Shown here one piece after another: positions 33,332-61,102 of a DNA stretch of 64,000 bases. The notes under the pieces are model-generated. The model worked only from the letters and a program-made list of their open reading frames with translations, made no database searches and was not told the DNA's origin. A program made the translations under genes and the position numbers. This stretch comes from a virus. The first letter of the stretch is position 1. Each line of letters begins with the position of its first letter. The stretch covers positions 64,001 through 128,000 of IMG/VR virus record IMGVR_UViG_3300033066_000693. One strand, written 5' to 3'.

Positions 33332-33344
33332 TATCTTCTCCTAT

Positions 33345-33758: not shown

Positions 33759-33811
33759 TGAATCATTCCTTTCGAGTTAGCCTTTTATCGTCTTGGGGCG
33801 AGGTCTTTCTG

Positions 33812-35670: not shown

Positions 35671-35679
35671 GATTTCTCC

Positions 35680-36045: not shown

Positions 36046-36119
36046 TCATAACCTCCTGAAACAAATGATATTGTGACTTCGGAGGTAAATATAACCAGAA
36101 AGCGCATTTCACCAAAATG

Positions 36120-37263: not shown

Positions 37264-37628
37264 AGTTCCTCGATTCGTTTGGCTTTATCGTCAATTACTA
37301 TATCGAACAAAGGCTTCTTATCGCCCATAACAAGAGTATGGAATTTTGCATTCCATCGCTCAAGTTGTTCTATGGTCAGCTTGCGTAGCGCTTCAACCCT
37401 CTCGCCATTCTCGGGCTGCGTACTTCCTCTGGCGGTCCAATAAACTATAGTCCATCCTTCGTCATACATCTTGTTGATTTTGGCTATGTTCTTATGGCTT
37501 GGGATGGCGTCTTCGTAGATATATCCATTCTCATAGAAACATATCGTGTCGTCTATGTCAACATATGCTGTGGGGGTCTTGTTATTCTTACTGTGGGTTT
37601 CTTTCATGGTATGACTTCCAATAATCAT
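37260..37628 (-). CDS. HAD-superfamily phosphatase-like protein
   Basis: DxDxT motif (VDIDDTIC), motif II Thr (VYWTARG) and motif IV (GDKKPLFDIVIDD). Confidence 0.45.
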   Translation of the reverse strand: MIIGSHTMKETHSKNNKTPTAYVDIDDTICFYENGYIYEDAIPSHKNIAKINKMYDEGWTIVYWTARGSTQPENGERVEALRKLTIEQLERWNAKFHTLVMGDKKPLFDIVIDDKAKRIEEL

Positions 37629-38430: not shown

Positions 38431-38439
38431 GTTTTACCC

Positions 38440-41698: not shown

Positions 41699-42348
41699 TT
41701 CTTCCTAAAATAGGCCAATGTATCTCTAAAATCTGGTAACAAATCTTGGAAGTCCACAAACCCTGCTTCTTCAACTATCTTCTTGTTCAAAGCCAAGTCC
41801 ATATAGAACCAACAGCCGCCAGTTGGCGATGGATTAGAATACTTGTATGCATGCAGATATTCCTCGGTAGCATTCTTATGATCAGGATGCCTGTCGAAGT
41901 TGGCAAACATGATTATCGCATGACCTCCGGGCTTCATTTTCTTGTACAGATTTGTCAGATATGAGGCCTGCGCTTCTCCTGATAGATGGCAAAACACCCC
42001 AAAACTAAAGGCGAAATCAATACTGCTGTCTTGGACGCCAGTACAGAAAAAGTCCTTATTGCTTAGCTGTATATAGTCGCAGTCGCCTTGAAACTTTTGA
42101 GGTACTACATCCAAGCATACGACTCGCTTGAAGTTTGGGATAAGGAAGTTTCTAGTCCACATACCTCCGCCGCATCCTATCTCAAGACAAATATGGTCTT
42201 TGTTGTAATACTTAGCCATTGCCGCAACAACATCGTCTCTGGTATACTTCGTAAGACCCTCATTGATATAGCCTTCGAATGACTCTTCATAGCCTCCGGG
42301 CCATAGCGTATTAAACACGTCAGCGGTTGTATCTCTATTGAATTCCAT
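41695..42348 (-). CDS. class I SAM-dependent methyltransferase
   Basis: Motif I LEIGCGGGMWTRNF. Motif post-I VVCLD. Confidence 0.55.
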   Translation of the reverse strand: MEFNRDTTADVFNTLWPGGYEESFEGYINEGLTKYTRDDVVAAMAKYYNKDHICLEIGCGGGMWTRNFLIPNFKRVVCLDVVPQKFQGDCDYIQLSNKDFFCTGVQDSSIDFAFSFGVFCHLSGEAQASYLTNLYKKMKPGGHAIIMFANFDRHPDHKNATEEYLHAYKYSNPSPTGGCWFYMDLALNKKIVEEAGFVDFQDLLPDFRDTLAYFRKN

Positions 42349-42359
42349 GAGAACCTTTC

Positions 42360-43265
42360 TTAGTGAAGTATACCCGATATCTCAATGATTCGCTGCAAAG
42401 CGTGAGCTTGCGGCGCATATGGACGCACCTGACAACAATGAATGTCTACGATTTCTTTTCTGCGCAAATGAAGCTCATTGTATGTGTAGTTGTTGGCTGG
42501 CTTGTCCCATTGCCAGATTCGTTCTCTGTTGTTATCGTAGTTGATGCCGTCATAGAATACTTGATTGTTTCTAATGGCATTTGTTAGACATTCAGAGGTA
42601 TAGTTCTCTTCCGCCAACCAATACCACCAGAACTGCCCGCAGCCTTGGAATGGAGGAAGAATCTCGGTCTTCTTTTCAATAGGCCATCCAGAGTGCGCTC
42701 CCATTCCGTAGATATCAGCCTTGTATATGTACCTTACAATGTCTTCAAATGATCTATCTTGGAAGAAGAGCTTGTTGAATAGCTTTCCTTTGGCAACATG
42801 GTAATGGGCTGGAATATCGCATCCAACTCTGCCCTCTCTCCTTCCATGCACTTCCGATCCAAAAGTACGAAAAGCGTCTGCTCTGCCGCACCTAGGCAGT
42901 CCAATGCCAGCGTTATTGAGACATAGATAATGGTCGTCAGGATATGGCTCAATCTTACTTGTAAAGTGATGTTTTTGCAATGGAAGCAAATCCATATCGC
43001 CAGTTATCCAAACTGTTTCTGGTTCGGTAATAGTATGGTAGAACTTGCTCATAGTAAGTTGAATAGCCCAAGGAACGTCAGGAATAAGTTCCTTTTCTAT
43101 GATCTTTCCATGCTCTTCAGTCATGTTGGTATTAGCCTTCTTGCCATAGAGCAAGCAGATAGGCTCAATCCCAAGACCTTGTTTGTAAAGACGAGCTTGG
43201 GTATTCCAATATGAACTATATATGTCAGGCTCGGTAACGGAGAAAATGGCTTTTTGAATACGCAT
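42360..43265 (-). CDS. putative glycosyltransferase, paralog A2 (301 aa)
   Basis: Paralogous to 39915-40817. Confidence 0.35.
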   Translation of the reverse strand: MRIQKAIFSVTEPDIYSSYWNTQARLYKQGLGIEPICLLYGKKANTNMTEEHGKIIEKELIPDVPWAIQLTMSKFYHTITEPETVWITGDMDLLPLQKHHFTSKIEPYPDDHYLCLNNAGIGLPRCGRADAFRTFGSEVHGRREGRVGCDIPAHYHVAKGKLFNKLFFQDRSFEDIVRYIYKADIYGMGAHSGWPIEKKTEILPPFQGCGQFWWYWLAEENYTSECLTNAIRNNQVFYDGINYDNNRERIWQWDKPANNYTYNELHLRRKEIVDIHCCQVRPYAPQAHALQRIIEISGILH

Positions 43266-43277
43266 AGTTGTTTCGCT

Positions 43278-43952
43278 TTATGTTATTTGATACCAATGAA
43301 CTTCTTTTTCCAACGGTCTTACTGCAACAAGTTCATAGTTCAAATTATGTTCTTCCCAAAAATCATGCAACGCTTTTCTTGCTCCAACGAGAGCATAGTC
43401 GTCTATGATAACGAATCCGCCTTTTTGAACCTTGTGATGCAAATGGTCTAAACAGACCTTAGTTGAGTCATACAAGTCGCCGTCAAGACGCAAGAGAGAA
43501 ATTTTGTCTATGGTATTTACAGGAACCGTATCCTGAAACCATCCCTCAACAAATACGTAGTTTTCAATCATAAGACGCCATCGCTTGCCAATGTTGTCTT
43601 TTACTACATCTAGACCATGAACGGTAATACCGCTGCTAACAAGCAACTCTCTTGGGTCTTTTGGTAATGCTCTATTTGGATCAACAGGGCCTACTCCGGG
43701 TTGGTCTGCGTCAAACTGACCAGCCAAAGGAATGCCCTGATAACTGTCATATGCATAGATCTTCTTAGGAGAAGACAGCTTCTTGCATACATGCCCCATA
43801 ACCCCAATCTGAGAACCGGCAGCAACGCCGCACTCAACAAAATCGCCTTCGATTCCATTGACAATAGCTTTGCATGCAAGGTCATAGGTGTTCTGTATAG
43901 TGTCAACATTCGAATACGCAAGATCTGCGTATGTTTTTAGCTCGTCCAACAT
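43278..43952 (-). CDS. TylF/MycF-family O-methyltransferase (macrocin O-MTase-like)
   Basis: GDFVECGVAAGSQ and LRLDGDLYDSTKVCLDHL match the TylF family signature (metal-dependent sugar O-methyltransferases). Confidence 0.55.
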   Translation of the reverse strand: MLDELKTYADLAYSNVDTIQNTYDLACKAIVNGIEGDFVECGVAAGSQIGVMGHVCKKLSSPKKIYAYDSYQGIPLAGQFDADQPGVGPVDPNRALPKDPRELLVSSGITVHGLDVVKDNIGKRWRLMIENYVFVEGWFQDTVPVNTIDKISLLRLDGDLYDSTKVCLDHLHHKVQKGGFVIIDDYALVGARKALHDFWEEHNLNYELVAVRPLEKEVHWYQIT

Positions 43953-44004
43953 GCTTCGTCTCCTTCATTATGATATGGTATTCGACTCATTGATTTCATT
44001 CCCT

Positions 44005-44844
44005 TTATTTCCATTCCCAACCCAAACTCTTCTCAATTTGAGTAACCTGATCGCATTTTTCTTTGTTTCCATACTCGTTATAGAAATCGACTATTTCCTT
44101 AGCAGAGAACGAGCCTCTTGAGGTATTACAACCAACCGCTCCAATGTAGTTAGTGAAATCATCTCCTCGATTTCTAACATGCTCAGGAATGTCCTGCATA
44201 TTTGCTTCGGTAACGTTCTTATTAGCAGAACGATCATTAGGGCCTTCCAAGCGATGAATACAAGAAGACTGTTGAGTAGGAGGCCATATGATATTAGTCA
44301 AGAAATCTTGATCGTATCCATATATAGTCGATCCTTCCTCTCGGAACTTGCCTCGCAGAAGGTCGTCCAAAGAGCTTACTCTGAAGATATCAAGAAAAGC
44401 TTTCGTATTGAATCCGCACATACCGCCCATCAATGGAATGCAATGACTTCGATTGTCGTTGATACCATGAACGGCCTTGCCTGTAGAGATGAATGCTCTG
44501 ACGCACTGTAACTGTCTGGGAGTAAGAATGGAATCAAGATCTCGGCAGAACACAAACTCTGTATTTTCCCATATGGGAAGCATTCTCCACAACATCATTG
44601 TGCATCTAAGATGTCTCTGATAGAACTGTCCTGCGTCTGGAACAACCGTAACTCTAATAAGTCCTTCGGCGGCCAACTTTCGCAATACTGGGCAGTATCC
44701 TTGGTCATTTAGTTCATGATCAGTATAGACCCATAGAACCCATGACGGATCATGATAAAGAGTAAAATGCTGCCTAATATTTGTTCCCAAATACGCAGCC
44801 CATCTTTGCTTATCACCAAATAGGGAAAAGCTGTTCACTTTCAT
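44005..44844 (-). CDS. hypothetical protein, paralog B1 (279 aa), probable glycosyltransferase
   Basis: Shares blocks with 44841-45626 (VHGINDNRSHCIPLMGGMCGFN vs LHCMRDHVEHNVPILGGMWGCKKG). Confidence 0.3.
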   Translation of the reverse strand: MKVNSFSLFGDKQRWAAYLGTNIRQHFTLYHDPSWVLWVYTDHELNDQGYCPVLRKLAAEGLIRVTVVPDAGQFYQRHLRCTMMLWRMLPIWENTEFVFCRDLDSILTPRQLQCVRAFISTGKAVHGINDNRSHCIPLMGGMCGFNTKAFLDIFRVSSLDDLLRGKFREEGSTIYGYDQDFLTNIIWPPTQQSSCIHRLEGPNDRSANKNVTEANMQDIPEHVRNRGDDFTNYIGAVGCNTSRGSFSAKEIVDFYNEYGNKEKCDQVTQIEKSLGWEWK

Positions 44845-45626
44845 TGAATGATCTCCCCTACATGAACCCCATGCGTCATCTTCTCATGAGGAGGGAATGG
44901 GCGAAGTTCATGTGGCCCAAAGAATGTTAGTGGGTCATAGATGTATTCTGGCATTTGAGGCGGCGGCGGGGCCTCTTCGCCTTCTTGCACAACCGGAGGA
45001 TCGTAATGGAAAATGTATCCCTCTTTCATTTCCCCATTGATAATAGTCAATCCTTGATAGAACTTATCATGAACAAGGGCATGCTTCTTTAGCTTATCCC
45101 AGACTACCTCTCTAAGAAAATCCTGATCGCAACCCTTATAGTCTTTCTTCTGCCATTCGTCAATAAACTGCGGCATATCTATCAAGATGCCTTTCTTACA
45201 GCCCCACATACCTCCCAATATTGGAACGTTATGCTCTACATGATCTCTCATACAATGAAGAGGCTTATCGCTTCGTAACCATTCATTTACGGCTGCTTGC
45301 TCTCTTACATTTACTCTAGAGTCAATGTCTCTAGAAATGAAGATATCAACGTTTTGCTCTCCCGCTGGCAAGAACCTCCAGAAAAGACCCTCCCACGGAC
45401 TGGAAATCGTTTTCTTAACAACTATCTGCGCTCCAAGGCTCTCAGCTTCTTTCATGAAAGAACGAGATACCTCTTCGTCACAATAAAAACGAACGTCCCA
45501 ACCGGGATATATCTCTTTACAGAGATGAATGTTCTCGATAGAGCCGTCAAGATATGACTTCCTATCGCCCCATACGCTAAATGATACAAGCTTAGACATT
45601 TCCGCCCTCTTAATTAACTCTACCAT
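44841..45626 (-). CDS. hypothetical protein, paralog B2 (261 aa), probable glycosyltransferase
   Basis: Paralogous to 44005-44844. 4-nt overlap. Confidence 0.3.
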   Translation of the reverse strand: MVELIKRAEMSKLVSFSVWGDRKSYLDGSIENIHLCKEIYPGWDVRFYCDEEVSRSFMKEAESLGAQIVVKKTISSPWEGLFWRFLPAGEQNVDIFISRDIDSRVNVREQAAVNEWLRSDKPLHCMRDHVEHNVPILGGMWGCKKGILIDMPQFIDEWQKKDYKGCDQDFLREVVWDKLKKHALVHDKFYQGLTIINGEMKEGYIFHYDPPVVQEGEEAPPPPQMPEYIYDPLTFFGPHELRPFPPHEKMTHGVHVGEIIQ

Positions 45627-46407
45627 CTATGTGTTTTTGAAGGTCTTCCTTCAGGCTGGCCACTCTTACTTCCATCGGAGTACCAATCGTTTCGTCGTAC
45701 ACTGTCCCATTTTGGCTATAATGATGCTGTCTCTTGTGATTCAGATGCAGTAGAGGTGCGTCTCTGCTCTCATGTAGTTTACATAAGGTGCTTATACGAG
45801 TCCAAAACTCGCAATCTTCGCTTCCGTATCCTACAAACTTCTCGTTCATACCGCCTATCTTATAGAAAGCATCTTTAGTAAAACCAATGCTTCCTCCTGT
45901 AAAATAATCAGACCTCTTTCCTCCTCGCCAAATCACTCCAAAGCGCAAGAGATCCATATTGTAGATCTCTTTAGCTATAAAACAAGCCTCATACTCGTAA
46001 AGTATATTGCTAACTCTAAAGATGTAATCTCTAGGCAAAATTATGTCTGCGTCATTCATTAGAATGGACTTGTAGGTTGCTGCAACCACGCCTGCGTTTA
46101 CTGCCTTGCATTTATTGAAAGGAGAACCATTGCTCTTGGTATAGATTTTTCGAACTCTAGAGTCTTGTCTAAAGTCGTCAAGCTTGACTATCTCTCTTTG
46201 ATCTTCCTCTGAAATAATGATTTCAATTGGCTCTACATTCTGCTGCAACAATCGAGATACGCAATACCTAAGATTAGGGATTCTTTCAATACCTCGTATT
46301 GGAATAACTACAGTAACGCCCGGTATTGACCTGACTGGCGAAGTAGCGTATTCAAACTTTCTCTGAACTTCTTGCGGAAGATTTGTAATCATTCTCGAAT
46401 GAATCAT
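45610..46407 (-). CDS. family 2 glycosyltransferase (GT-A fold)
   Basis: VVIPIRGIERIPNLRYCVSRLL...EIIISEED and a later NDADIIL (DxD). Confidence 0.5.
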   Translation of the reverse strand: MIHSRMITNLPQEVQRKFEYATSPVRSIPGVTVVIPIRGIERIPNLRYCVSRLLQQNVEPIEIIISEEDQREIVKLDDFRQDSRVRKIYTKSNGSPFNKCKAVNAGVVAATYKSILMNDADIILPRDYIFRVSNILYEYEACFIAKEIYNMDLLRFGVIWRGGKRSDYFTGGSIGFTKDAFYKIGGMNEKFVGYGSEDCEFWTRISTLCKLHESRDAPLLHLNHKRQHHYSQNGTVYDETIGTPMEVRVASLKEDLQKHIDGRVN

Positions 46408-47028
46408 TTACCAGCCTCTAATACGTGGGTGAATAGGAACGCCTCTACTATTTGGAGGTGGCACTTGAGAAGGCTGATTAGGCGGTCCTCCCTTTTCATA
46501 CAAGTAATGGTAGATTACTCCGGGAATGAATCGCTCTTCCTTCAACAAGGGCAACAATCTAGTTGAATAGTCTCGATCTTCTCCAAAATTGGACTCAGGA
46601 AACTTAACCTGCAATGCTAGCTCTCTTTTGACAGGGTTCAAATGGTTTGGACAGCGATAGTAAATCTTGTTTTGCTCAAACCACTCTTTATACTTGAGCG
46701 AATGAATGAACATTCTAGGCGAAGATCCTTGGAACGTGATAATTCCCTGAAGACCGCAGCAATCTGGTTTTGTTTCAATAGCGCTTAGTATCTTAGAAAC
46801 ATAATCTTCAGATACCAAATCGTCGTCGTCTACAAAGCAAACGTATTCGCCTTGAGCTTCGTCTAGTAGAAGATTACGCTTCCTTCCAATAGGGATTTGT
46901 CCCTCGTCTGTCTTCACAATGATCTCTACGTCATTATGAGCTTGCGGCTGTAGCACATTCAGAAGCCTTTGTAGTTTATCTACTCTAGACCCTAGAGAAC
47001 AAATCAAAATTGACAGTTTCTTACTCAT
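46408..47028 (-). CDS. family 2 glycosyltransferase
   Basis: LSILICSLGSR...LNVLQPQ.....VEIIV and FVDDDDLVSEDY (DxD). Confidence 0.55.
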   Translation of the reverse strand: MSKKLSILICSLGSRVDKLQRLLNVLQPQAHNDVEIIVKTDEGQIPIGRKRNLLLDEAQGEYVCFVDDDDLVSEDYVSKILSAIETKPDCCGLQGIITFQGSSPRMFIHSLKYKEWFEQNKIYYRCPNHLNPVKRELALQVKFPESNFGEDRDYSTRLLPLLKEERFIPGVIYHYLYEKGGPPNQPSQVPPPNSRGVPIHPRIRGW

Positions 47029-47852
47029 ACTATTTTCCCTCTTCTGGACAAGCGAATAGCTCGCTGTTTTTCAAAGTTCTTTACCCATTTATTCATTGCA
47101 GCGGTCCTTTTATCTATCGGAGCATTGGGCAAAAGCCCCTTCGGTATCTGCTCATTCTGGTCTGCTAACCGCTGTATGCCTTTACCTTCTTCTCGAATAG
47201 CCCATTGCACAAAATGCTTATTACCTCTGTTATAGCCGCTCGCCATTATCCAAGGCCTTCCTAGGTCTTTTAGAACAACGCTGCTATTATCAAAGGGGAA
47301 GTATATGAAACTCTCTTTACGATACTGGTTCTTAAGATTTCGGAGTTGTACCTCAGGATTATCGGAGGTATTGAGTTTTTCGCCCATCTCTCTACAGAAG
47401 GTTCCTCGTATGAAGCTGGGAGCTAACCAGAAGTCTTGTTGAACGTTTTTCCAAGCTCGCAATGCTACTTGCTGGACATGCGGAGCTATAAAGAACTGGT
47501 TGAAGGACGACATCTTGAACGGAGCTAAAAGTTCCCAATCGTCCTCTAAATGGAAGTTATAGTATGTTTCTATCTTAGAGAAGCACCATTTTATAGCCGA
47601 AGCGAAGTTTGGAGTATCTGGCATATTGACAATAACATTGCCAAAATACGTTCTAGCTATAGCAGCGACTTCTTCTCTTTTATGGTCGTCTTTGCCGTCA
47701 GGAAACCTATCTATATTGAGATATAGAGTCACTTGTTTGAAATCTATGCCTTGTAAGTTCTTTGTAAAGGAATCATAAGTAGCCTTAATCAACTCTGGAC
47801 GAGGCATAGCAGTTGTAGTAAAACTAAGCGTTTTCTCGGTTATTGGGTACAT
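47025..47852 (-). CDS. hypothetical protein, paralog C1 (275 aa; FHLEDDW motif), possible nucleotide-sugar transferase
   Basis: Shares TTTAMPRPELI and (F)HLEDDW(E/L)LL blocks with 47855-48628. Confidence 0.3.
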   Translation of the reverse strand: MYPITEKTLSFTTTAMPRPELIKATYDSFTKNLQGIDFKQVTLYLNIDRFPDGKDDHKREEVAAIARTYFGNVIVNMPDTPNFASAIKWCFSKIETYYNFHLEDDWELLAPFKMSSFNQFFIAPHVQQVALRAWKNVQQDFWLAPSFIRGTFCREMGEKLNTSDNPEVQLRNLKNQYRKESFIYFPFDNSSVVLKDLGRPWIMASGYNRGNKHFVQWAIREEGKGIQRLADQNEQIPKGLLPNAPIDKRTAAMNKWVKNFEKQRAIRLSRRGKIV

Positions 47853-47854
47853 AG

Positions 47855-48628
47855 TTAGAGCTTAGACCTATCAATCTCTGCGTTCTGGTCTCTTATCTTT
47901 TGCTCTCTTTCCAGAGCTAATGGGTTCCGTACAATGTTCCATTTGGTGAACTCGTCGCCACCTCTCGCAAAGTTCGTCTTCTTCATCCAAGTTCTACCAG
48001 TATCTTGTAGAATGACTTTCTCCTCTTCGAACGGCCAATAGATAAAAACATCTTCTGGCTTATATGGGTTGGCAGCCCTGATTTGATTCTCAGGATTCTT
48101 TGAAGGATTCAATGATTTTGCCATAAGGTTGCAAAAAGAAGTCCTCATGATATTGGGACTTAGACAGAACCTTGGATTGGATATCTTCCATGCGCGAAAT
48201 GAAACTTGCATGATCTTCTCGTTATCGAAGAACTCGCCTATGCTCTCAGGAATATCAGAAAGCAATAGCCAATCATCCTCTAAATGGAAGACGAACTCAG
48301 AGTTGGCATTCGTGAACAACCACTGAACAGCCAAAGAGAAGTTCGGTATGTTAGTAACCAGAGTCTCTTCGTTGCGACAGACAACTTTGCCAAAGAACGT
48401 TCTAGCTATTCTAATGACTTCGGCGGTTTCTGCTACGCCTGTTGTATCTGGCAAGCGGTCTACGCTCAAGAATAGAGTCATCTTCTTGAAATCGAGCCAC
48501 GGCATTCGTTCTTGAAACGATTGATATGTAGGCCCTATAAGCTCGGGCCTTGGCATTGCGGTTGTAGTTATACAGGTATTCGAAGTAGAAGGTCTGCTCA
48601 TGCTACAATTATCGGGCAATTGCAGCAA
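47855..48628 (-). CDS. hypothetical protein, paralog C2 (257 aa)
   Basis: Paralogous to 47025-47852. Confidence 0.3.
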   Translation of the reverse strand: MLQLPDNCSMSRPSTSNTCITTTAMPRPELIGPTYQSFQERMPWLDFKKMTLFLSVDRLPDTTGVAETAEVIRIARTFFGKVVCRNEETLVTNIPNFSLAVQWLFTNANSEFVFHLEDDWLLLSDIPESIGEFFDNEKIMQVSFRAWKISNPRFCLSPNIMRTSFCNLMAKSLNPSKNPENQIRAANPYKPEDVFIYWPFEEEKVILQDTGRTWMKKTNFARGGDEFTKWNIVRNPLALEREQKIRDQNAEIDRSKL

Positions 48629-49584
48629 TCTACTCTACGAACTTCTGTTGTTAGAGATTCCCGTACCGCAATAGTCTCATTGCAGTTAGGACACTTGGTA
48701 TTTTGCAGACCGTCTTGACTATACACGCTTTGTTGATAAACGTGCTTTGACTTAGACGAATACAGCTTGGCTATCTTCTGAAGCAATCCGTCAGAAGTCA
48801 CCTGACACAGTACGTCTTTATAGGCAGGATAGATCTTGAGAAGGTGAAGCGGAACAAGCGGGGTCTTGCTCATAAACTCGGCAAAAGCCAAATGCTCTCC
48901 CACAGTTGCGTCATGATATACAGGAATGCTTATTTCAACATGCAATCTGGAAACGGCATAATCTATGCAGTCAAGTACGGTTTTTTCAAATGCCCTAGCC
49001 ACAGACTGATATCTCTGTTCATTGCCCTTCCAGTCTATGTTCATGGCAGACGCCACCTCGCATAGCTTAGCCCATATAGGAAGCTCGGCAAACGCATTGG
49101 TTTTCAGAATCAGTTCTATCCCTTTGCTTTTGCAAGCAAGTCCAAGATCTAAAATGTACTCAAAGTAAACAATAGGCTCGTTGTATGTGAAACAAACAGC
49201 TAAACAGTTCTTGGCAACCGCCAAATCAACTACTTGTTGCGGAGATAAAGATGCGGCTGGCTGCTCGTCGTCTTTTTGACTGACCATCCAGTTTTGACAA
49301 AAAGAACAAGCCATCGAACAACCATAACCTCCAATAGACAAGGTTCTAAGGTTTGGCTTGTAATGATAGATTGGCTTCTTTTCTATTGGCTCAACCGCAG
49401 CATGAGATATCTTCCCATAAGCACGCAGATTGATGCCGTCTCCTGCTTGACGAACCTGACAAACACCTGTTTGTCCCGTGCGAAGCTTGCATTTATGAGG
49501 ACAGACTAAACATTCAAAGCGACCGTCGCCAGTCGCTTGATATGTTATCGCTTGAGCATTTTGGACGGCTTCAGCATGAGCCAT
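48598..49584 (-). CDS. radical SAM enzyme, PflA-like/AmmeMemoRadiSam-type
   Basis: CSMACSFCQNW is a Cx3Cx2C cluster. It is preceded by N-terminal CLVCPHKCKL...GVCQVR and EPIEKKPIYHYKPNLRTLSIGGYGC, which closely follows the AmmeMemoRadiSam radical SAM signature. Confidence 0.6.
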   Translation of the reverse strand: MAHAEAVQNAQAITYQATGDGRFECLVCPHKCKLRTGQTGVCQVRQAGDGINLRAYGKISHAAVEPIEKKPIYHYKPNLRTLSIGGYGCSMACSFCQNWMVSQKDDEQPAASLSPQQVVDLAVAKNCLAVCFTYNEPIVYFEYILDLGLACKSKGIELILKTNAFAELPIWAKLCEVASAMNIDWKGNEQRYQSVARAFEKTVLDCIDYAVSRLHVEISIPVYHDATVGEHLAFAEFMSKTPLVPLHLLKIYPAYKDVLCQVTSDGLLQKIAKLYSSKSKHVYQQSVYSQDGLQNTKCPNCNETIAVRESLTTEVRRVDCCNCPIIVA

Positions 49585-49868
49585 ACTTCGTCCGTATTCT
49601 TAAGGTCTGAGTTAAGTTGAGGAGGGTTCTTGATGATAGAGTAAAAAAGGTTCTCAGCGCATAGACCCTGACAAAGAGGAAGGCTATCTTTGTGGATATT
49701 GACATACATTGCTTTGGATACATTGTCGTCAAACCAAAAACGAAGAGACTCTCTAATAGACTGGACAACGCAAGCGGCGTCATAGCCTTGACGAAAAGCT
49801 GCGTCATACTGATCTAAGTATATAAGTTTGATCTCTTTGATCATGAGGCTCCTCCCTGATTGTTTCAA
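49545..49868 (-). CDS. hypothetical protein, 107 aa
   Basis: Tiling ORF. Confidence 0.3.
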   Translation of the reverse strand: MKQSGRSLMIKEIKLIYLDQYDAAFRQGYDAACVVQSIRESLRFWFDDNVSKAMYVNIHKDSLPLCQGLCAENLFYSIIKNPPQLNSDLKNTDEVWLMLKPSKMLKR

Positions 49869-49891
49869 GGAAGAGTGCCTCAGACCCTTTA

Positions 49892-50311
49892 TTATGCATG
49901 CACTCGGAGCTTAATAGTTGTGACTCCGCTGTTGTCAGTATTTTGAGAGTCCCACTGATAAGGTCCGTTTTGCACCATCTTCATTACAACATCTTGTGCA
50001 TAATGCATCACAAGTTTTGGGAAATTCTGATCCCAATGGTACTTATCGTTTCCCGCCACATGAATATTGTAGGTTCCGTCTTCCTCGCGAGAAAGACCAA
50101 TCTCGCTATTGACCTTCATTGTCATATTTCTTTGGATGACAATGTTGGCCTTGGCTTCTCTACGTTCTGCGCCATTCAGCCCCACAGCCTCGTTGTGAAG
50201 GCTGTACTTATACCCAACCTTCTCCAGCGCCGTAAGAACAGACACCTCATGCTGAACCTTCAATTGACATGCTACAGTATGAAAAACGCTCATATTTACT
50301 CCATTACCCAA
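49892..50311 (-). CDS. hypothetical protein, 139 aa
   Basis: Tiling ORF. Confidence 0.3.
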   Translation of the reverse strand: MGNGVNMSVFHTVACQLKVQHEVSVLTALEKVGYKYSLHNEAVGLNGAERREAKANIVIQRNMTMKVNSEIGLSREEDGTYNIHVAGNDKYHWDQNFPKLVMHYAQDVVMKMVQNGPYQWDSQNTDNSGVTTIKLRVHA

Positions 50312-50787
50312 GTTAGCTTGCGAAGTCTATAGAAGTATCGAATAATTTCGTATACAGCCCCATCTCCTGCCCTTGCATGAGCGCCGTACATGGCATGCTC
50401 ATAAACCTCAGGGATAGCATTCGATGGACAACCAGAAAACGCCGCTTCGCAAATACACTTGTAATCGTTCTCGGCGTCACCAATATAGGCAACATTATCC
50501 CAAGTTAACTCATTCTCCAATAGATGTTTGCTCAAATCAGCAAACTTATCCTTTGAACCGGAGATAATAGTATGTCCCCATTTACCCATTTTAGCATGGA
50601 TTACCCTATCTGTAGAACCAGTTATAATGACGATCTTGAAACCGTCCTTAGCAGCCCTATAGATGCCATGCATGTCTCTTGTATTGAAGTTCTTAGACAA
50701 ACCGCCGTTCTCTGCAACCAAGTAGTTGCCGTCCGTAATGGTTCCGTCCACATCAATAGCGATAAGTTTAACTGCGTCGATACTCAT
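50296..50787 (-). CDS. KdsC-family HAD phosphatase (KDO-8-P/KDN-9-P phosphatase type)
   Basis: KLIAIDVDGTITDG (DxDGT). The ~163-aa size, later GSTDRV and GDAENDYK motifs match the KdsC subfamily. Confidence 0.65.
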   Translation of the reverse strand: MSIDAVKLIAIDVDGTITDGNYLVAENGGLSKNFNTRDMHGIYRAAKDGFKIVIITGSTDRVIHAKMGKWGHTIISGSKDKFADLSKHLLENELTWDNVAYIGDAENDYKCICEAAFSGCPSNAIPEVYEHAMYGAHARAGDGAVYEIIRYFYRLRKLTWVME

Positions 50788-50795
50788 TGAGTGCC

Positions 50796-51665
50796 TTAGA
50801 TTGAAGAGTCTTTGTCAGAGCGAAGTTTCTTCCTCTGTTGTAGCTCTTCTTCGTCTGGCAGAGGGTCAGAGAACGTAAAACCACGTCGAACGTTCTTCAG
50901 ATCCCTGCACAGCCTTCGCAGCCCTTCAGGTTCAAGACTTGCGGCAGCGTCGGTATGCTTGAGCGTTCTGTCGTCTACAAAGTGTCTCTCAATAAACTCT
51001 GCGCCCAAGATCCAACCTGCTACGTCTGCCGCAATACCGTATCCATGATTGCTAAAGCCTATGCGGATTCCTAGCTCTCCATAGAACTCAACAAACTTTT
51101 TGATATCACAGAGATGTAGCTTTTCAAATGGACATGGATAAATGCTAGTGCAATGATATAGAACGAATCTCTTTGGGTCTTTTCTGGCAAACTCTGCCAT
51201 CTTATCAATCTCGGCATGAGACGACATTCCAGTAGAAATATGAATATCACCCTTGTACTCTGAGAAAAGATACTGAAGCATTTCCATGTCATTATTGCAT
51301 GGGCTTCCAACCTTAATAAACTCAGGATTGATAGAAACGATCTCTCTTGCAGAGGTCATATCCCAAACAGAACAAACATACTTGATGCCAATGAGCTTAC
51401 AATATTCAGCTATCTCTCTGTGCTGATCAACCGTAAGCTCTAAAGCCTTACGATGTTCCAAATACGTTTTGCCATAAGAGAATATCTGGTTTGGATGAGG
51501 CTGGTGCTTAAGGGACTCGGACACGCACTCGTCTGGATTCCGCTTCTGAAACTTTGCATAGTCTGCTCCGCAGATCTTGGCTAGATTTGCCAAGTTCTTT
51601 GCTCGCTCCATAGAGCCAAGATGTACGCATCCTATCTCCGCAATAACCTTGGCTTCATGAATCAT
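50796..51665 (-). CDS. NeuB-family nonulosonate (sialic/KDN-type) synthase, short form without C-terminal AFP/SAF domain
   Basis: VIAEIGCVHLGSMERAKNLANLAKICGADYAKFQKR matches the NeuB signature IAEIGxNHNG...GADAVKFQ. Length 289 aa. Confidence 0.6.
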   Translation of the reverse strand: MIHEAKVIAEIGCVHLGSMERAKNLANLAKICGADYAKFQKRNPDECVSESLKHQPHPNQIFSYGKTYLEHRKALELTVDQHREIAEYCKLIGIKYVCSVWDMTSAREIVSINPEFIKVGSPCNNDMEMLQYLFSEYKGDIHISTGMSSHAEIDKMAEFARKDPKRFVLYHCTSIYPCPFEKLHLCDIKKFVEFYGELGIRIGFSNHGYGIAADVAGWILGAEFIERHFVDDRTLKHTDAAASLEPEGLRRLCRDLKNVRRGFTFSDPLPDEEELQQRKKLRSDKDSSI

Positions 51666-52372
51666 AGAAATCCCCCGTAATGGTTAAACATCTTGGACAT
51701 TATTGCTAGATCGTCCATATTATCAATCTGCATGCTTTCAAACTGCGGCGTTTCATACAGATAAGTGTTTCCAGATACTCGTATCTTTGTCTTCAAAAAA
51801 CACTTGCATTTGGTTATGTAGATATTACCATTGTCATGAAAGTAATAATCGCTTTCTTTGAGTTCTTGCCTCATAGGGCGATTCTTTAGATCATAGGTGC
51901 AAAAAGGAACTTCTGAAACAGCATTTTTGCGCCAGAAAAACGGCGTCACCTTTTCTACTGTTATCAAGCTATCATAATCTTCTATTACTGCTTTCTCAAT
52001 ACACTTGCTAAGCAGATCAAACCTGCGAGCAGGAGAAGTTCCTTGCAGAATTACAAGATAGTCATAATCTGGATAGTGTTCCAGAAGATGCTCGATAGCT
52101 GCTTCCGTCTTAGACGTAGGAGTACACAACTCGTCTGGTCTTTGTAGAAACTCAAATCTTTCGTCTAGCGAAGAAAAAGCCTCTATCTTCTTACGAACAT
52201 CAGGATCGTTAGAAGAAGTTACGACCTTATCAATAGACAAGCAACGAGAAGCTGCCATGAGCGTCCACTGAAGTAGCGAATAATCTCCGATCTTCCTGAA
52301 CAGCTTGCCGGGAAGACCAACAGAGCCAGTTTTTCCCGGCACGAATGCGAGAACCTTTTTATCTCGAATCAT
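51662..52372 (-). CDS. CMP-nonulosonate (CMP-NeuAc/CMP-KDN/CMP-KDO-type) cytidylyltransferase
   Basis: KVLAFVPGKTGSVGLPGKLFRKIGDYSLLQW matches the acylneuraminate cytidylyltransferase N-terminal signature. Confidence 0.6.
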   Translation of the reverse strand: MIRDKKVLAFVPGKTGSVGLPGKLFRKIGDYSLLQWTLMAASRCLSIDKVVTSSNDPDVRKKIEAFSSLDERFEFLQRPDELCTPTSKTEAAIEHLLEHYPDYDYLVILQGTSPARRFDLLSKCIEKAVIEDYDSLITVEKVTPFFWRKNAVSEVPFCTYDLKNRPMRQELKESDYYFHDNGNIYITKCKCFLKTKIRVSGNTYLYETPQFESMQIDNMDDLAIMSKMFNHYGGFL

Positions 52373-52989
52373 TTAGCCTTCTTCTTTCTCTTATATGTTC
52401 TCTTAGGAGCAACTATTTCTATTACTGGAACCAAAGACAAGGCTTCTCTGCGAATCATTTCTTTTGTAGGGGCAGGAGCATAATATCGAAAATTGAACTT
52501 CAAATTAAGAACGTTCAACTTGTTTTGAAGCTGTTCAACAGCGATCCCAACCATAAACTTTTCTACAAAACCTACATCTGCCCCATTCATAGAATTCACA
52601 TGTCTAATGTATTCAACGCATGATAAAATATCCTCAAAAATCTGGATTTCACTAGAAAACAAACCTAGTTCATGAACATATCTCATAAACAAAGGATCTA
52701 TTCTAAATTCTCGCCTCTCTTTAGAAGAGGCTTGCTTATCTATATGCCGTAGAGTGTTTATCACACACGACATCCTATCTTCTCTATCCCTGCCTTTATG
52801 AATAAGACCGCTTGATAACTGCTTTGTTATTTCCTTATCAAGGAATCTTCTCTCTTTCGCAACTTGCTTGGCGCTCATCTTTGGAAGGCGCTTTGCGGGC
52901 GGCATCTTATCAAGAGTTTCTTTTGCAGCTTCCATTTGACGAGTCAAAGAGAACATATCTACAGGCACTACAAACTTTTCTTTGTTCAT
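52369..52989 (-). CDS. hypothetical protein, 207 aa
   Basis: Start taken at the internal ATG 52987-52989 (MNKEKF), which forms an ATGA overlap with the upstream gene's stop. The track ORF extends to 53154 and would overlap the upstream gene by 169 nt. Confidence 0.35.
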   Translation of the reverse strand: MNKEKFVVPVDMFSLTRQMEAAKETLDKMPPAKRLPKMSAKQVAKERRFLDKEITKQLSSGLIHKGRDREDRMSCVINTLRHIDKQASSKERREFRIDPLFMRYVHELGLFSSEIQIFEDILSCVEYIRHVNSMNGADVGFVEKFMVGIAVEQLQNKLNVLNLKFNFRYYAPAPTKEMIRREALSLVPVIEIVAPKRTYKRKKKAK

Positions 52990-53756
52990 GGGCTTCCTTT
53001 CTTTCTGCTTCCATATTGGTTCAGCACTTCTTCCATCGTCATCTTTGGAAAGACATCCAGAATCCCTATTGGGGATACGTAGATGATTCTTCCTTTGGTT
53101 GCCTCGGGATTGACCTCGGCAAAATGATTCCAGTACAGGTTCATCTGTACGCAATGAATATCCACTGGCTTGTCTTTGATTGTTCCCTGATTAGGCGTAG
53201 AGAAGATACGATTGTTATATTCAATGGCTCTCGTCTCTCCGGGGAACTGCCAAAAGTATCGGTTCTTGCCCTCATAGCAGCAATCGTGCCCGAGAAGAAC
53301 AATAGGGTCGCATCCCATGATCCAAGCAAAGTGCATGGCCGTCGCCTGAGAAGTCCTTGCTCCTATGATCGGAATCTCAGGATCGTCTGTCAACTTTAGA
53401 TTCTCTTTATGGAATAGTAACTGTCCGCCGGGCTGAGGAGTGGCCCATTGTCTGTGGTCAAAAAATACCACTTCCTCAGGACGAAAATGCCCAACATGGT
53501 TCTTGAGCTTTTCTTCATATAGAAGCTTTGTACACTTACTATCTCTAGCTGTGATTTGCCAGTAGTTCCATGTCTTTACGCCGTCGTCGTCGGTTACGAA
53601 ATAATCGCAGTCAGGGAACTTGAGGATTCCCGAGTTGGCGGTAAAGGTTACATAGTCCTTGGTTATAGATGGACTTATATGCCTAAGAGAAGGCCCTGCT
53701 CCTGCTACAAAAGCGAGCTTGCCTTTATGCTTGTCTTTGAGACTTGATAGAGTCAT
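52986..53756 (-). CDS. Cst-II/GT42-like sialyltransferase or DUF115 (Maf/MptE-like) nonulosonate transferase
   Basis: LAFVAGAGPSLRHI parallels Cst-II VIIAGNGPSLKEI. RTSQATAMHFAWIMGCDPIVLLGHDCCY parallels ITSGVYMCAVAIALGYKEIYLSGIDFY. Confidence 0.45.
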   Translation of the reverse strand: MTLSSLKDKHKGKLAFVAGAGPSLRHISPSITKDYVTFTANSGILKFPDCDYFVTDDDGVKTWNYWQITARDSKCTKLLYEEKLKNHVGHFRPEEVVFFDHRQWATPQPGGQLLFHKENLKLTDDPEIPIIGARTSQATAMHFAWIMGCDPIVLLGHDCCYEGKNRYFWQFPGETRAIEYNNRIFSTPNQGTIKDKPVDIHCVQMNLYWNHFAEVNPEATKGRIIYVSPIGILDVFPKMTMEEVLNQYGSRKKGSP

Positions 53757-59756: not shown

Positions 59757-60068
59757 TTAGCGAGGCCCCACCTTTAGGACAATAGCTGTCTTATCCCCTC
59801 CATCGAACGAAGCGCTGTCGAAAGAAGGCTCAACCACTAGGTCTATGCCTTTTTTAGCCGCTTCACCTCTAGCAATGATTATGGCCTTCCACGCATTATT
59901 GCCTGATGAAGCTCCAACCGTTTTGAGCTTTGCATGTCCATGCTTGCCTATAACAGTCGTAATAGCAGAAGCCAGACTTTTAACATAATCCTTGCGGGCT
60001 TGATCGTCTGCGAAATTTGATTCGCCCTTTACTTTTAGGATTGTTATGTCTGGTACGTCGTTAGACAT
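59757..60068 (-). CDS. SpoVS-like protein (stage V sporulation protein S family, Alba-like fold)
   Basis: ITILKVKGESN...LASAITTVIGKHGHAKLKTVGASSGNNAWKAIIIARGEAAKKGIDLVVEPSF...DGGDKTAIVLKV parallels SpoVS (VLKVSAKSSP...AGAL...AEIQAIGAGALNQAVKAVAIARGFVAPSGVDL...PAF...DGEERTAIKL). Start taken at the internal MSNDVPD; the track ORF extends to 60140. Confidence 0.55.
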   Translation of the reverse strand: MSNDVPDITILKVKGESNFADDQARKDYVKSLASAITTVIGKHGHAKLKTVGASSGNNAWKAIIIARGEAAKKGIDLVVEPSFDSASFDGGDKTAIVLKVGPR

Positions 60069-60082
60069 TGGTGCCGACTCCT

Positions 60083-61102
60083 TTATTCGAGTACACCATA
60101 GAATTTCAATCGTTGTTGCAGAAGATCTGGCTTTTCCCATACCTTGCTACTGTGACATATCGACTGAAATTCGCAATACCTGCACTCGTATTCGTCCTTA
60201 GTAAGAGGACGAGGAGGCGGAAGTAGTTTCTCTTCTACCATGTCGTTCATCTTCGATGCTTGCTCTTGAATCTTTGACCAAAGATCAGGATTACGATCTA
60301 TCTTGTAAATCTTAGTTGAAGAATCGTCTTTGTTTTCATAGATAAGCACTCCATAATCCAAATCTAGGATATTGCAATAGATGACAAGCTGAGTTCTGTA
60401 GACCAGTGACGGTCCATGATCAAGCTTGCTCTTGAAGTTGAAAGAGTTGATGCTCTTCATATCAAGAACAATTGGTTTCTTTGGAAGATCTTCAACCTTG
60501 AAAAGAACGTCTACGGCATTCCCGCTCTTATACTTCTCTGGATCGAACTTCGAGAAGTCTAGAATCTGATCGCAATGCCCTCTGAAGTTGAGAGCCTTAT
60601 CTTCAACCGTTATTTCATGATACTCAAACTTGGTATTTCCGCACAAACATGCGTTTGGCTTGAAAACTCCAAGCTTTTCCTGCCTGCCATATACTCTGGT
60701 TTGGAAGTTGGCTAAAACTTCCGGAACCTTCAATCCGTCTCTTTGAAGAATATCCGGAAAGTAGTTGCCGTCTTCATCCCACAAATGACAGCATGGATTG
60801 GTGCATTGCCAAACGCCTCGTAGGACTCCTATCTTCTCAAAGTAAGAAGCCCAACGAGCATGAAGGCTATGCCCAGTATCGAATATACGCAGAGTCTTAG
60901 GGTCTTTGTCTTCTGGCTCAGTCTTGACCCAACCTCGCTCAGAATACCTTTGCATTTGCATTCTGCGCAAGCATCCGCCGAAGGCAGAAGGGTGATAAAC
61001 CTCATGACCTCTCGGAGGGCCATTGAGCGCAGACCATCGCAAGTGCGTATTGACAACGTTCATGATATTCGTAACTTCTGGCGGCTGTGCTACAGGAGGC
61101 AT
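60083..61102 (-). CDS. PD-(D/E)XK nuclease with a C-terminal Cys cluster (Cas4/RecB-nuclease-like exonuclease)
   Basis: GHCDQIL ... VLDMKSI give a D...D/E.K arrangement. C-terminal CRYCEFQSIC plus an N-terminal Cys are consistent with the Cas4-type Fe-S ligands. Confidence 0.5.
   Translation of the reverse strand: MPPVAQPPEVTNIMNVVNTHLRWSALNGPPRGHEVYHPSAFGGCLRRMQMQRYSERGWVKTEPEDKDPKTLRIFDTGHSLHARWASYFEKIGVLRGVWQCTNPCCHLWDEDGNYFPDILQRDGLKVPEVLANFQTRVYGRQEKLGVFKPNACLCGNTKFEYHEITVEDKALNFRGHCDQILDFSKFDPEKYKSGNAVDVLFKVEDLPKKPIVLDMKSINSFNFKSKLDHGPSLVYRTQLVIYCNILDLDYGVLIYENKDDSSTKIYKIDRNPDLWSKIQEQASKMNDMVEEKLLPPPRPLTKDEYECRYCEFQSICHSSKVWEKPDLLQQRLKFYGVLE

Follow-up and report, generated by a model that had tools for sequence, protein, structure and literature searches.

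Can a bacteriophage make, activate and transfer its own sialic-acid-like sugar? A minus-strand locus raises this question. It lies in a stretch of 64,000 nucleotides of the IMG/VR record IMGVR_UViG_3300033066_000693, hereafter the window. The sequence-only reading had recognized in it a KdsC-family HAD phosphatase, a NeuB-family synthase, a CMP-sugar cytidylyltransferase and a Cst-II-like transferase, and all four proteins are present where it placed them (Table 1). It had put the transferase gene downstream of the pathway genes; along transcription this gene actually lies upstream of them.

Table 1. Genes of the module and of the adjoining glycan island, with positions in the window
Feature	Position	Strand	Length; Pfam match
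DUF115/MptE-like (PF01973), Maf-like protein; putative CMP-nonulosonate (Kdn) transferase, first module gene	52986-53756	minus	256 aa
Lys-rich ORF between transferase and CMP-synthetase genes	52369-52989	minus	206 aa
CMP-nonulosonate synthetase, CMP-Kdn-synthetase-like	51662-52372	minus	236 aa; CTP_transf_3, E 1.2e-9
Short NeuB-family synthase without SAF domain; putative Kdn-9-phosphate synthase (PEP + Man-6-P)	50796-51665	minus	289 aa; NeuB, E 3.5e-61
KdsC/YrbI-family type C0 HAD phosphatase; putative nonulosonate-9-phosphate phosphatase	50296-50787	minus	163 aa
DUF1257 protein	49892-50311	minus	DUF1257, E 4.9e-7
Small ORF, companion of the module	49545-49868	minus	
AmmeMemoRadiSam-like radical SAM enzyme	48598-49584	minus	Radical_SAM, E 2.4e-11
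Two Pfam-blind GT-A glycosyltransferase paralogues, soluble	47855-48628, 47025-47852	minus	
Two GT2 glycosyltransferases, soluble GT-A	46408-47028, 45610-46407	minus	
Remaining island: Gmd, Fcl-like SDR, sugar-1-P nucleotidyltransferase; PRK-like kinase fused to class II aldolase/epimerase; TylF-type and class I methyltransferases; about ten unknown ORFs	33812-45626	minus	TylF, E 1e-34 (TylF-type enzyme)

Results

The module is conserved among large phages

Start/stop overlaps of 4 nt occur within the module, whose genes are translationally coupled. The same gene order is found in about 30 independent viral contigs, with protein identities of 27-73%, and the arrangement is therefore far beyond chance. 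The source of the DNA is viral, as its relatives, 100-500 kb in length, are all contigs from IMG/VR; the module is conserved in at least 30 viral contigs, the largest of about 500 kb. The carrier is a very large, marine-type bacteriophage.

The 206-aa ORF overlaps each of its neighbours by 4 nt; the longest mechanical ORF at this site is of 261 aa. It is confined to the near-identical contigs L001-L003, no other syntenic locus having it, and gave no significant match in Pfam or PHROG.

The synthase resembles Kdn-9-phosphate synthases

The NeuB-like ORF did match the NeuB profile of Pfam, as the earlier reading implied, and covers positions 3-274 of the 329-position model TIGR03569. It carries a signature made of K41/R42, the block G65-x-T67-Y68-x-x-H71-R72, R233 and R254, which is common to 75 Bacteroidota synthases, each encoded directly upstream of an orthologue of BT1713, a Kdn-9-P phosphatase that has been characterised, and which is not found in N. 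meningitidis NeuB or PseI when these are aligned. The motifs K-x-(Q/T)-K-R, G-x-T-Y-x-E-H-R and D-R-x-x-K-x-T-D, together with R254, are thus shared with the class of Bacteroides thetaiotaomicron BT1714 and not with the ManNAc- or Pse-type enzymes. BLAST bit scores rank the same way (140-146 for the BT1714 class, 90 for N. meningitidis NeuB, 75 for PseI). The positions that we take to be catalytic or metal-binding in N. meningitidis NeuB are kept in the alignment. As in the phage, BT1714 and its Bacteroidota orthologues lie directly upstream of a KdsC-family C0 HAD phosphatase gene (BT1713) in the same orientation.

The phage enzyme differs from this class, with which it shares about 32-35% identity, in being only 289 aa long as compared to 344-352 aa for most members: the C-terminal SAF (antifreeze-like) domain, retained by 75/75 BT1714-type enzymes, is absent. 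In N. meningitidis NeuB the SAF domain gives a substrate contact. Relatives of the phage synthase fall into about 265 clusters (50% identity) at E<=1e-30, and among the best 150 of these the proteins are mostly of 270-300 aa.

The synthetase keeps the Kdn-gating arginine of PpNeuA

The cytidylyltransferase expected next to NeuB was confirmed, and its top match in the PDB is the CMP-Kdn synthetase PpNeuA of Prymnesium parvum (9t4z, E 2.3e-18), as compared to E 1e-9 for the mouse and Vibrio CMAS. At the PpNeuA sites it has Arg at the Arg196 gate, Thr at Thr89 and Val at Val23; Tyr183, Gln110 and Arg78 are also kept, no Lys stands at position 23, and Lys and Leu replace the conserved Arg19 and Asn29, respectively. 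The gate arginine is invariant in 27/27 phage-linked homologues, while pairwise alignment places Phe at this site in the Neisseria and Vibrio Neu5Ac enzymes and Leu in the mouse enzyme. In PpNeuA, Arg196 gates Kdn specificity: docking showed it to clash with an N-acetyl group at C5, and the R196L substitution moved the preference from Kdn to Neu5Ac (PMC12934254). Unlike the phage synthetase, PpNeuA comes from a eukaryote and is anchored to the membrane by its C-terminus (PMC12934254).

The phosphatase is catalytically intact

The phosphatase scored about equally on the NCBIfam models KdsC (88 bits, E 5.7e-25), which was marginally top, YrbI (81.8 bits) and Kdn-9-P phosphatase NF058599 (79.7 bits, E 2.6e-22), all three under their curated cut-offs; its PDB matches are KdsC and BT1713 chains. 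The HAD catalytic residues D10, D12, T54, K80, D103 and D107 (BT1713 numbering) are all kept. Hence the family named in the sequence-only reading stands; the specificity residues are those of neither KdsC nor BT1713. Position 56 is Ser, where BT1713 orthologues have Glu and KdsC (two chains) has Arg, and the set E56/R63/R64/K67, invariant in BT1713 orthologues, is missing: phage phosphatases show Ser/Ala56, Asp58 and Lys64 in place of Glu56, Thr58, Arg63, Arg64 and Lys67. By these residues, the enzyme belongs to a third subgroup, neither BT1713-type nor KdsC-type. Its gene follows NeuB in most related viral loci, and is missing or degenerate in some relatives (L007, L024/25 and L009).

The putative transferase is Maf-like

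The N-terminus of the DUF115 protein reads FVAGAGPSL and the protein matches PF01973 (MptE-like/DUF115) with 35.6 bits, against a cut-off of 34.6. The proposed motif and DUF115 relationship were thus borne out, while membership of GT42 was rejected: no GT42 or GT29 Pfam model matched at E<=0.01, and in structure the protein is much closer to Maf than to Campylobacter Cst-I/Cst-II (GT42) or to GT29 sialyltransferases, its likeness to Cst-I being confined to the fold. The Maf flagellin nonulosonic-acid glycosyltransferases (Magnetospirillum, PDB 5mu5) have PF01973 as their central domain. The phage protein corresponds to this domain alone, with 13% sequence identity, whereas Maf, 632 residues long, has further domains at its N- and C-terminus. 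When PDB sequences were searched with a profile built from the phage family, no Maf chain came up. The protein stands outside a flagellin context. It probably transfers the nonulosonate.

The module caps a soluble glycan island

Conserved companions of the module, the DUF1257, small ORF and radical SAM genes (48598-50311) keep synteny with the HAD gene at many loci; the radical SAM enzyme scores 191.5 bits on TIGR04337 (cut-off 220). Beyond them the module caps an island of roughly 20 kb with soluble glycosyltransferases, methyltransferases and GDP-fucose genes, annotated also from precomputed Pfam on identical contigs. Gmd exceeds its cut-off (TIGR01472, 467.8 bits vs. 415), and the Fcl and PRK matches reach 211 and 191 bits. 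Hydrophobic or transmembrane segments were sought in the island proteins and found in none; the island also contains no flippase, polymerase, lipid-carrier enzyme, initiating phosphoglycosyltransferase or export component. It sits among replication-type genes, with no obvious capsid genes adjoining.

Discussion

On balance, we consider it probable that the genes of the phage suffice for a cytoplasmic pathway whose product is a 5-hydroxy nonulosonic acid activated with CMP, CMP-Kdn being the most likely one, with a virion protein as a plausible acceptor. The three-step phosphorylated route, which had been guessed from gene adjacency, and Kdn as its product are favoured by a NeuB signature that belongs to BT1713-linked synthases and is absent from the ManNAc- and Pse-type ones, by a synthetase closest to PpNeuA that keeps the Kdn-gating arginine of the latter, and by the catalytically intact KdsC-type phosphatase that follows NeuB in most related phages. 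The short NeuB would condense PEP and a hexose-6-phosphate (Man-6-P), both supplied by the host, into Kdn-9-P, the phosphatase would take off the 9-phosphate, and the cytidylyltransferase would convert Kdn and CTP into CMP-Kdn. The co-transcribed minimal Maf-like enzyme, of sialyltransferase fold, could then move Kdn onto the acceptor. All enzymes of the island, at least four GT-A transferases among them, are soluble, and neither a flippase nor a polymerase nor a lipid-carrier enzyme is encoded. The most likely acceptor is therefore a glycan that is assembled on a protein in the cytoplasm, and virion proteins of the phage itself are plausible carriers.

The same enzymes might instead form an auxiliary metabolic module that remodels the host surface (LPS, capsule, S-layer, flagellin or pilin), for example so that superinfection is blocked or progeny do not re-adsorb to debris. 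This would agree with the usual view of phage polysaccharide genes, such as the neuA/B/C genes of a virus from a lake (bioRxiv 10.1101/655167), with host flagellins being the natural Maf substrates and with the position of the island among replication-type genes, away from obvious capsid genes. However, export would then depend wholly on host machinery, as the island encodes no membrane protein, and the phage protein has neither of the terminal domains of Maf; we regard this alternative as rather unlikely. That the DUF115 protein is an MptE/thiamine-pyrophosphokinase-like diphosphokinase, or has some other role, and that Kdn is moved by an unannotated island protein or not at all, seems improbable to us.

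As for the sugar, there is little likelihood that another nonulosonate is made, either Neu5Ac via ManNAc-6-P as in animals or a host-supplied N-acylated sugar. The best named NCBIfam models for the synthase are indeed NeuB_NnaB (175 bits) and PseI (133 bits), and the phospho-class human NANS also accepts ManNAc-6-P (PMC6200933, Table 2); but both scores are far under the cut-offs (400 and 340, respectively), the arginine gate is invariant and in PpNeuA works against the C5 N-acetyl group, and the window has no NeuC, GNE, NanK, NanE, aminotransferase, acetyltransferase or Pse/Leg-type genes. We think it very improbable that KdsC- and KdsB-like enzymes, as in LPS core synthesis, give an 8-carbon Kdo-like or other unusual ulosonic acid from a different aldose phosphate. 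The marginal preference of the phosphatase for the KdsC model and the weak KdsB match of the cytidylyltransferase (35 bits, NCBIfam) speak for it, and the conserved radical SAM and DUF1257 proteins nearby could alter the sugar; yet the synthase belongs to the NeuB family and not to KdsA, the phosphatase lacks the Arg56 of the two KdsC chains, and alignments of the cytidylyltransferase are much better to CMAS and to CMP-Kdn enzymes.

The favoured Kdn route has parallels in cellular organisms. BT1714 and the Prymnesium enzyme convert Man-6-P to Kdn-9-P, and in P. parvum the logic is the one inferred here, from Man-6-P through Kdn-9-P and Kdn to CMP-Kdn (PMC6200933). The phage has a homologue of a dedicated phosphatase, whereas none turned up in the alga; the phage module, being viral, also differs from the Bacteroides Kdn pathway by adding a CMP-synthetase and a transferase.

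Giant viruses glycosylate their capsids or fibrils autonomously and mycobacteriophages glycosylate their capsids; like these systems, the phage combines sugar-nucleotide synthesis genes and soluble transferases in one virus. Viral neuA/B/C clusters were noted earlier bioinformatically (bioRxiv 10.1101/655167). With respect to known viral systems, the phage is set apart by its 9-phosphate (Kdn-type) route, dedicated phosphatase, Maf-like transferase and huge-phage lineage, and our literature search found no paper on a viral route of this type with such a phosphatase and transferase. A role of the sugar in immune evasion or mimicry is speculation; the phage may make a sugar coat of its own instead of relying on that of the host.

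Organization of the module and its viral context

All real genes of the 64-kb window lie on the minus strand and are tightly packed. The sequence-only reading had named four proteins, which are indeed present and whose families were matched (see table), although the DUF115 gene, which had been placed downstream, is transcriptionally upstream of the pathway genes. Consecutive genes of the module either overlap by 4 nt or are separated by gaps of 2-8 nt, which suggests that they are co-transcribed. When the region between 48 and 57.5 kb was scanned, promoter-like sites occurred at chance level and the short intergenic gaps contained nothing terminator-like.

Features of the nonulosonate module, the glycan island and other genes of the window
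Feature	Position (nt)	Strand	Evidence or remarks
DUF115/MptE-like protein, 256 aa	52986-53756	-	N-terminal FVAGAGPSL; PF01973, 35.6 bits (cut-off 34.6)
ORF without functional annotation, 206 aa, Lys-rich	52369-52989	-	no significant family match
Cytidylyltransferase, 236 aa	51662-52372	-	CTP_transf_3, E 1.2e-9
NeuB-family synthase, 289 aa	50796-51665	-	PF03102, E 3.5e-61
KdsC-family HAD phosphatase, 163 aa	50296-50787	-	KdsC, E 5.7e-25; Kdn-9-P phosphatase model, E 2.6e-22; all below curated cut-offs
DUF1257 protein and AmmeMemoRadiSam-like radical SAM enzyme	48598-50311	-	radical SAM enzyme 191.5 bits (cut-off 220)
PRK-like kinase fused to class II aldolase/epimerase, 491 aa	38440-39915	-	island; PRK model 191 bits (cut-off 236)
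Gmd and Fcl-like reductase (SDR), with adjoining GMP-reductase/IMPDH-like protein	32249-35670	-	Gmd and reductase in island; Gmd 467.8 (cut-off 415)
Two GT2 enzymes	in island
TylF-type and class I methyltransferases	in island
Sugar-1-P nucleotidyltransferase	in island
About ten ORFs without assigned function	in island
Two very large proteins, 1128 and 1396 aa	3000-10573	-	19% Ser+Thr
tRNA nucleotidyltransferase (918 aa), HNH endonuclease, full DnaJ chaperone, SpoVS-like protein	10579-13335, 15934-16650, 18281-19378, 59757-60140	-	tRNA nucleotidyltransferase: PolyA_pol + HD

The gene order UvrD, (DNA methylase), one to three DUF115 genes, cytidylyltransferase, NeuB and HAD phosphatase, followed by the DUF1257 and radical SAM genes, was seen again in about 30 viral loci, and this recurrence rules out a chance juxtaposition. 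A chance or pseudogene cluster was rejected on the basis of this deep synteny and of identical copies on at least six independent metagenome contigs. The 206-aa ORF, which overlaps both the DUF115 gene and the cytidylyltransferase gene by 4 nt and whose sole family match (SacI endonuclease) is sub-threshold, is missing from every other syntenic phage locus. Since it is confined to the near-identical contigs L001-L003, it appears to be a recent insertion and may represent a selfish or regulatory gene.

Among the more distant relatives, the cytidylyltransferase gene of loci L018-L023, L027, L031 and L034 is preceded by DUF115/Maf-like paralogues, two or three in tandem; a second, divergent NeuB is present in L021 and L034, and a second cytidylyltransferase in L034. 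These paralogues hint at more than one nonulosonate or acceptor. In many related phages the DUF1257 protein and the radical SAM enzyme also adjoin the phosphatase, and they might modify the sugar.

The identical NeuB and its neighbours were found on several independent metagenome contigs, and protein relatives with 27-73% identity and conserved gene order on IMG/VR viral contigs of 100-498 kb and on one 421-kb assembly contig. Some homologues bear GOS and Tara labels, which indicate marine sources. The window contains phage-type replication genes (UvsX-like recombinase, Toprim primase, clamp-loader subunits, topoisomerase I and UvrD) and a PHROG virion structural protein; a tRNA scan of the window found none, and the DNA of the region gave no match in the reference phage collection. 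We conclude that the window comes from a huge phage whose lineage has been described little or not at all.

The NeuB-type synthase

The PF03102 TIM-barrel profile matched the phage NeuB with 207 bits over its positions 3-233 of 241. The residues of Neisseria meningitidis NeuB (NmNeuB) that we take to be catalytic or metal-binding (E25, K53, Q55, K129, S132, S154, Y186, S213, H215, E234, H236 and D247) are all identical in the alignment and invariant across the phage family; the exceptions in the phage enzyme are N184, replaced by Ser, and E134, which has no counterpart. The protein stops at 289 aa and lacks the C-terminal SAF (antifreeze-like) domain: the Pfam search gave no SAF match and the TIGR03569 match spans only positions 3-274 of 329. 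This holds for the phage-linked NeuB family as a whole, whose members are about 270-300 aa long and without SAF domain. About 265 clusters at 50% identity reached E<=1e-30; of the best 150 listed, the majority have 270-300 aa.

For comparison with a known phosphorylated route, the sequence of BT1713, the Kdn-9-P phosphatase of Bacteroides thetaiotaomicron, was read from a PDB alignment and used to retrieve 80 Bacteroidota loci. B. thetaiotaomicron itself is not among them, and BT1713 and the synthase BT1714 are represented here by orthologues with 64-75% identity. In nearly all of these loci a full-length NeuB, mostly of 344-352 aa, lies just upstream of the BT1713 orthologue, often abutting it, and this is the arrangement of BT1714-type Kdn-9-P synthases. 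We aligned 29 short phage NeuBs with 75 BT1714-type enzymes, NmNeuB and one PseI, and the residues that separate phosphatase-linked synthases from ManNAc- and Pse-type enzymes were defined empirically from the 75 Bacteroidota sequences. K41 and R42 (within K-x-(Q/T)-K-R), L75, R233 (within D-R-x-x-K-x-T-D), R254, K280 and L281 are common to the phage and BT1714 classes and different in NmNeuB and PseI, and the same is true of the block G65-x-T67-Y68-x-x-H71-R72. Several of the shared residues are basic and therefore plausible phosphate ligands. In BLAST, the phage NeuB scored 140-146 bits with the BT1714 class, 90 with NmNeuB and 75 with PseI. By its diagnostic residues the phage NeuB thus resembles the class forming 9-phosphates, and it would be a putative user of Man-6-P or ManNAc-6-P together with PEP.

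A tblastn search of the NeuB against reference phages returned three weak records; the two that were examined have short NeuBs beside small ORFs resembling sialyltransferases, but do not contain this module. Short NeuBs of 272 and 299 aa with a K-F-Q-K-R motif are present, unannotated, in two public records, respectively L128 (LR756508.1, a 484-kb uncultured phage) and L129 (Marine virus AG-345-L05, Kyanoviridae). Each of them adjoins a small ORF whose N-terminus resembles that of sialyltransferases (VIVGNSPLI in L128, ILGRGKSL in L129), L128 also carries Gmd and an Fcl-like gene, and no cytidylyltransferase or HAD gene was detected near either NeuB.

The phosphatase

The phosphatase scored below the cut-off with the Kdn-9-P phosphatase model NF058599 (79.7 bits vs. 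180) and with the KdsC and YrbI models (TIGR01670/NF007019; 88 vs. 208 and 81.8 vs. 106.95, respectively). The HAD catalytic residues D10, D12, T54, K80, D103 and D107 (BT1713 numbering) are kept in the window protein and in almost all phage homologues. The catalytic set is thus complete, and the protein belongs to the KdsC/YrbI group of type C0 HAD phosphatases.

The specificity positions were derived empirically from 82 BT1713 orthologues, in which Glu56, Arg64 and Lys67 are invariant and Arg63 is near-invariant; these four residues are presumably those tied to specificity in the BT1713 mutant structures. The window phosphatase has Ser56, Ala63, Lys64 and Lys67 and so does not match the BT1713-type set. 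In most phage homologues, position 56 is Ser or Ala and position 58 is Asp; Lys predominates at 64, and position 67 is variable. Position 56, which follows the motif-2 Thr-Gly, is Arg in two aligned KdsC structures. By these residues the protein forms a third subgroup, neither BT1713-type nor KdsC-type, and the genomic context suggests a nonulosonate-9-P as substrate.

The phosphatase gene is absent in the related viral loci L007 and L024/25, and in L009 the nucleophile Asp is replaced by Asn and a metal-binding Asp by Ser. On this account the phosphatase looks helpful but dispensable, in keeping with Prymnesium, for which redundant sugar phosphatases have been noted and no dedicated Kdn-9-P phosphatase homologue was found (PMC6200933). 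In L035, a HAD-like region and a cytidylyltransferase match share one 363-aa ORF, with the BT1713-type Glu56, Arg64 and Lys67 present.

The cytidylyltransferase and the identity of the sugar

The best solved relative of the cytidylyltransferase is the CMP-Kdn synthetase of Prymnesium parvum (PpNeuA, 9t4z; E 2.3e-18); the CMP-Neu5Ac synthetases of mouse and Vibrio reach 1e-9. In PpNeuA, Arg196 gates the specificity for Kdn, the R196L replacement switches the preference to Neu5Ac, and Leu is common at this position in Neu5Ac enzymes (PMC12934254). The equivalent residue in the C5 pocket is Arg in the window enzyme and in all 27 phage-linked homologues; in the Neu5Ac enzymes compared it is Phe (Neisseria and Vibrio) or, in the pairwise alignment, Leu (mouse). 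The Thr89 and Val23 positions are also Thr and Val in the window enzyme, as in PpNeuA; the latter is Val or Ile in most of the closest relatives, and among more remote phage homologues Lys prevails. As for the CTP-binding residues of PpNeuA, Ser22, Lys28 and Arg78 are kept, while Arg19 is replaced by Lys and Asn29 by Leu; more distant relatives have Arg and Asn at these two positions.

The window contains no NeuC, aminotransferase, acetyltransferase or Pse/Leg-type gene. Pseudaminic- or legionaminic-type products (Pse or Leg) were rejected, since PseB/C/H/G and LegB/C-type genes are missing and both the NeuB signature and the cytidylyltransferase gate are unsuitable. The product best supported by these data is Kdn or a close analogue with a 5-hydroxy group. 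With Man-6-P, PEP and CTP available from ordinary host metabolism, the three enzymes would suffice for the pathway. The three-step phosphorylated route put forward by the sequence-only reading thus gains support, in refined form, from the NeuB residue signature and the Arg at the gate position; the NeuB-like ORF does match the NeuB profile, and the phosphatase falls into the KdsC/YrbI group rather than among other HAD enzymes.

The putative DUF115 transferase

The DUF115-family profile, searched against PDB sequences, gave chance matches only and no real PDB chain; the assignment therefore rests on fold comparison. The two values of the comparison were highest for the Maf flagellin glycosyltransferase 5mu5 (17.3 and 196), followed by MptE HPPK (14.3 and 145), a GT29 sialyltransferase (9.7 and 156) and Cst-I of GT42 (9.1 and 166). 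The protein has a PF01973 (Maf_flag10/DUF115) domain with a Maf-like fold and a weak match to a PHROG family labelled sialyltransferase, and it is not a sequence member of the GT42 (Cst-I/Cst-II) profile. The central PF01973 domain of Maf has been likened to Cst-II (PMC11339370). The proposed likeness to Cst-II thus holds at the level of the fold and not as GT42 membership, and "minimal Maf-like" is the more accurate name: with 256 aa as compared to 632, the three-domain Maf architecture is absent and the central domain stands alone. Maf enzymes transfer CMP-activated nonulosonates onto Ser/Thr (O-glycosylation) and tolerate Neu5Ac and Kdo as donors. On the basis of its gene linkage to the CMP-synthetase, the DUF115 protein is a putative transferase of a CMP-nonulosonate to protein Ser/Thr. 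Uncultured phages commonly encode DUF115 proteins, and at least one giant virus has them as well.

The glycan island and its probable acceptor

The module caps one end of an island of sugar genes spanning about 20 kb (33.8-53.8 kb). The Gmd and Fcl-like SDR suggest a phage GDP-6-deoxyhexose branch, possibly tied, through the adjoining GMP-reductase/IMPDH-like protein, to guanine nucleotide supply. The 491-aa fusion, whose kinase part is a phosphoribulokinase/uridine-kinase-like P-loop kinase, adjoins the sugar-1-P nucleotidyltransferase and may represent a novel sugar-phosphate branch.

No hydrophobic segments were found in the island proteins, and no flippase, polymerase or lipid-carrier enzyme is encoded in the island. 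Such an all-soluble set without export genes favours assembly on a cytoplasmic acceptor, which most simply would be a protein; protein is also the acceptor of Maf enzymes and in the capsid glycosylation of giant viruses and mycobacteriophages. A serious alternative is that the phage sugars remodel the host surface, in which case the export machinery would be that of the host. Hypermodification of DNA is unlikely: although the island sits among replication genes, so complex a set, with at least 5 transferases, 2 methyltransferases and 2 sugar-nucleotide branches, is more in keeping with a glycan on protein or lipid. Elsewhere in the window, the 1128-aa and 1396-aa proteins, which gave no family matches, may speculatively be virion fibre or structural proteins and candidate targets of glycosylation.

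Discussion

The module described by the sequence-only reading is confirmed, and its functional reading is supported with the refinements reported here, all enzyme functions being predicted. In its chemistry the phage pathway follows the Kdn route known from B. thetaiotaomicron and Prymnesium, and the Neu5Ac-9-P route of animals. The phage system differs from the known systems in its synthase without SAF domain, its new phosphatase subgroup, its single-domain transferase and its huge-phage setting within an all-soluble glycan island. Phage enzymes modifying host nonulosonates are already known, and neuA/B/C genes have been noted in metagenomic viral genomes (bioRxiv 10.1101/655167); we came across no literature describing a 9-phosphate or Kdn-type pathway encoded by a phage, or a Maf-like transferase from one.

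Taken to its furthest, and only tentatively since we consider it rather unlikely, the evidence would describe a widespread lineage of huge phages with an autonomous cytoplasmic factory that builds a methylated deoxyhexose glycan, caps it with self-made Kdn and attaches it to the phage's own virion proteins. Its enzyme set would be pared down to a Kdn-9-P synthase without SAF domain, a KdsC-like phosphatase of a new subgroup and a Maf with one domain only. If true, this would be the equivalent, among bacteriophages, of the self-glycosylation of giant viruses, and the first coat of the sialic-acid type to be made by a virus.

Sugars of the sialic-acid type on cell surfaces shape recognition, charge and resistance to enzymes. 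The NeuB-type genes of viromes would not all be host-surface genes of the NeuC/ManNAc type. If the phage both makes and attaches Kdn, some 20 kb of sugar genes would have a testable reason, for instance virion shielding, adhesion or the evasion of recognition by host or grazer, and minimal forms of the synthase (SAF-less), the phosphatase (new subgroup) and the Maf-like transferase (single-domain) would be on offer for glyco-engineering. Autonomous glycosylation would then also reach the huge phages, beyond giant eukaryotic viruses and a few mycobacteriophages.
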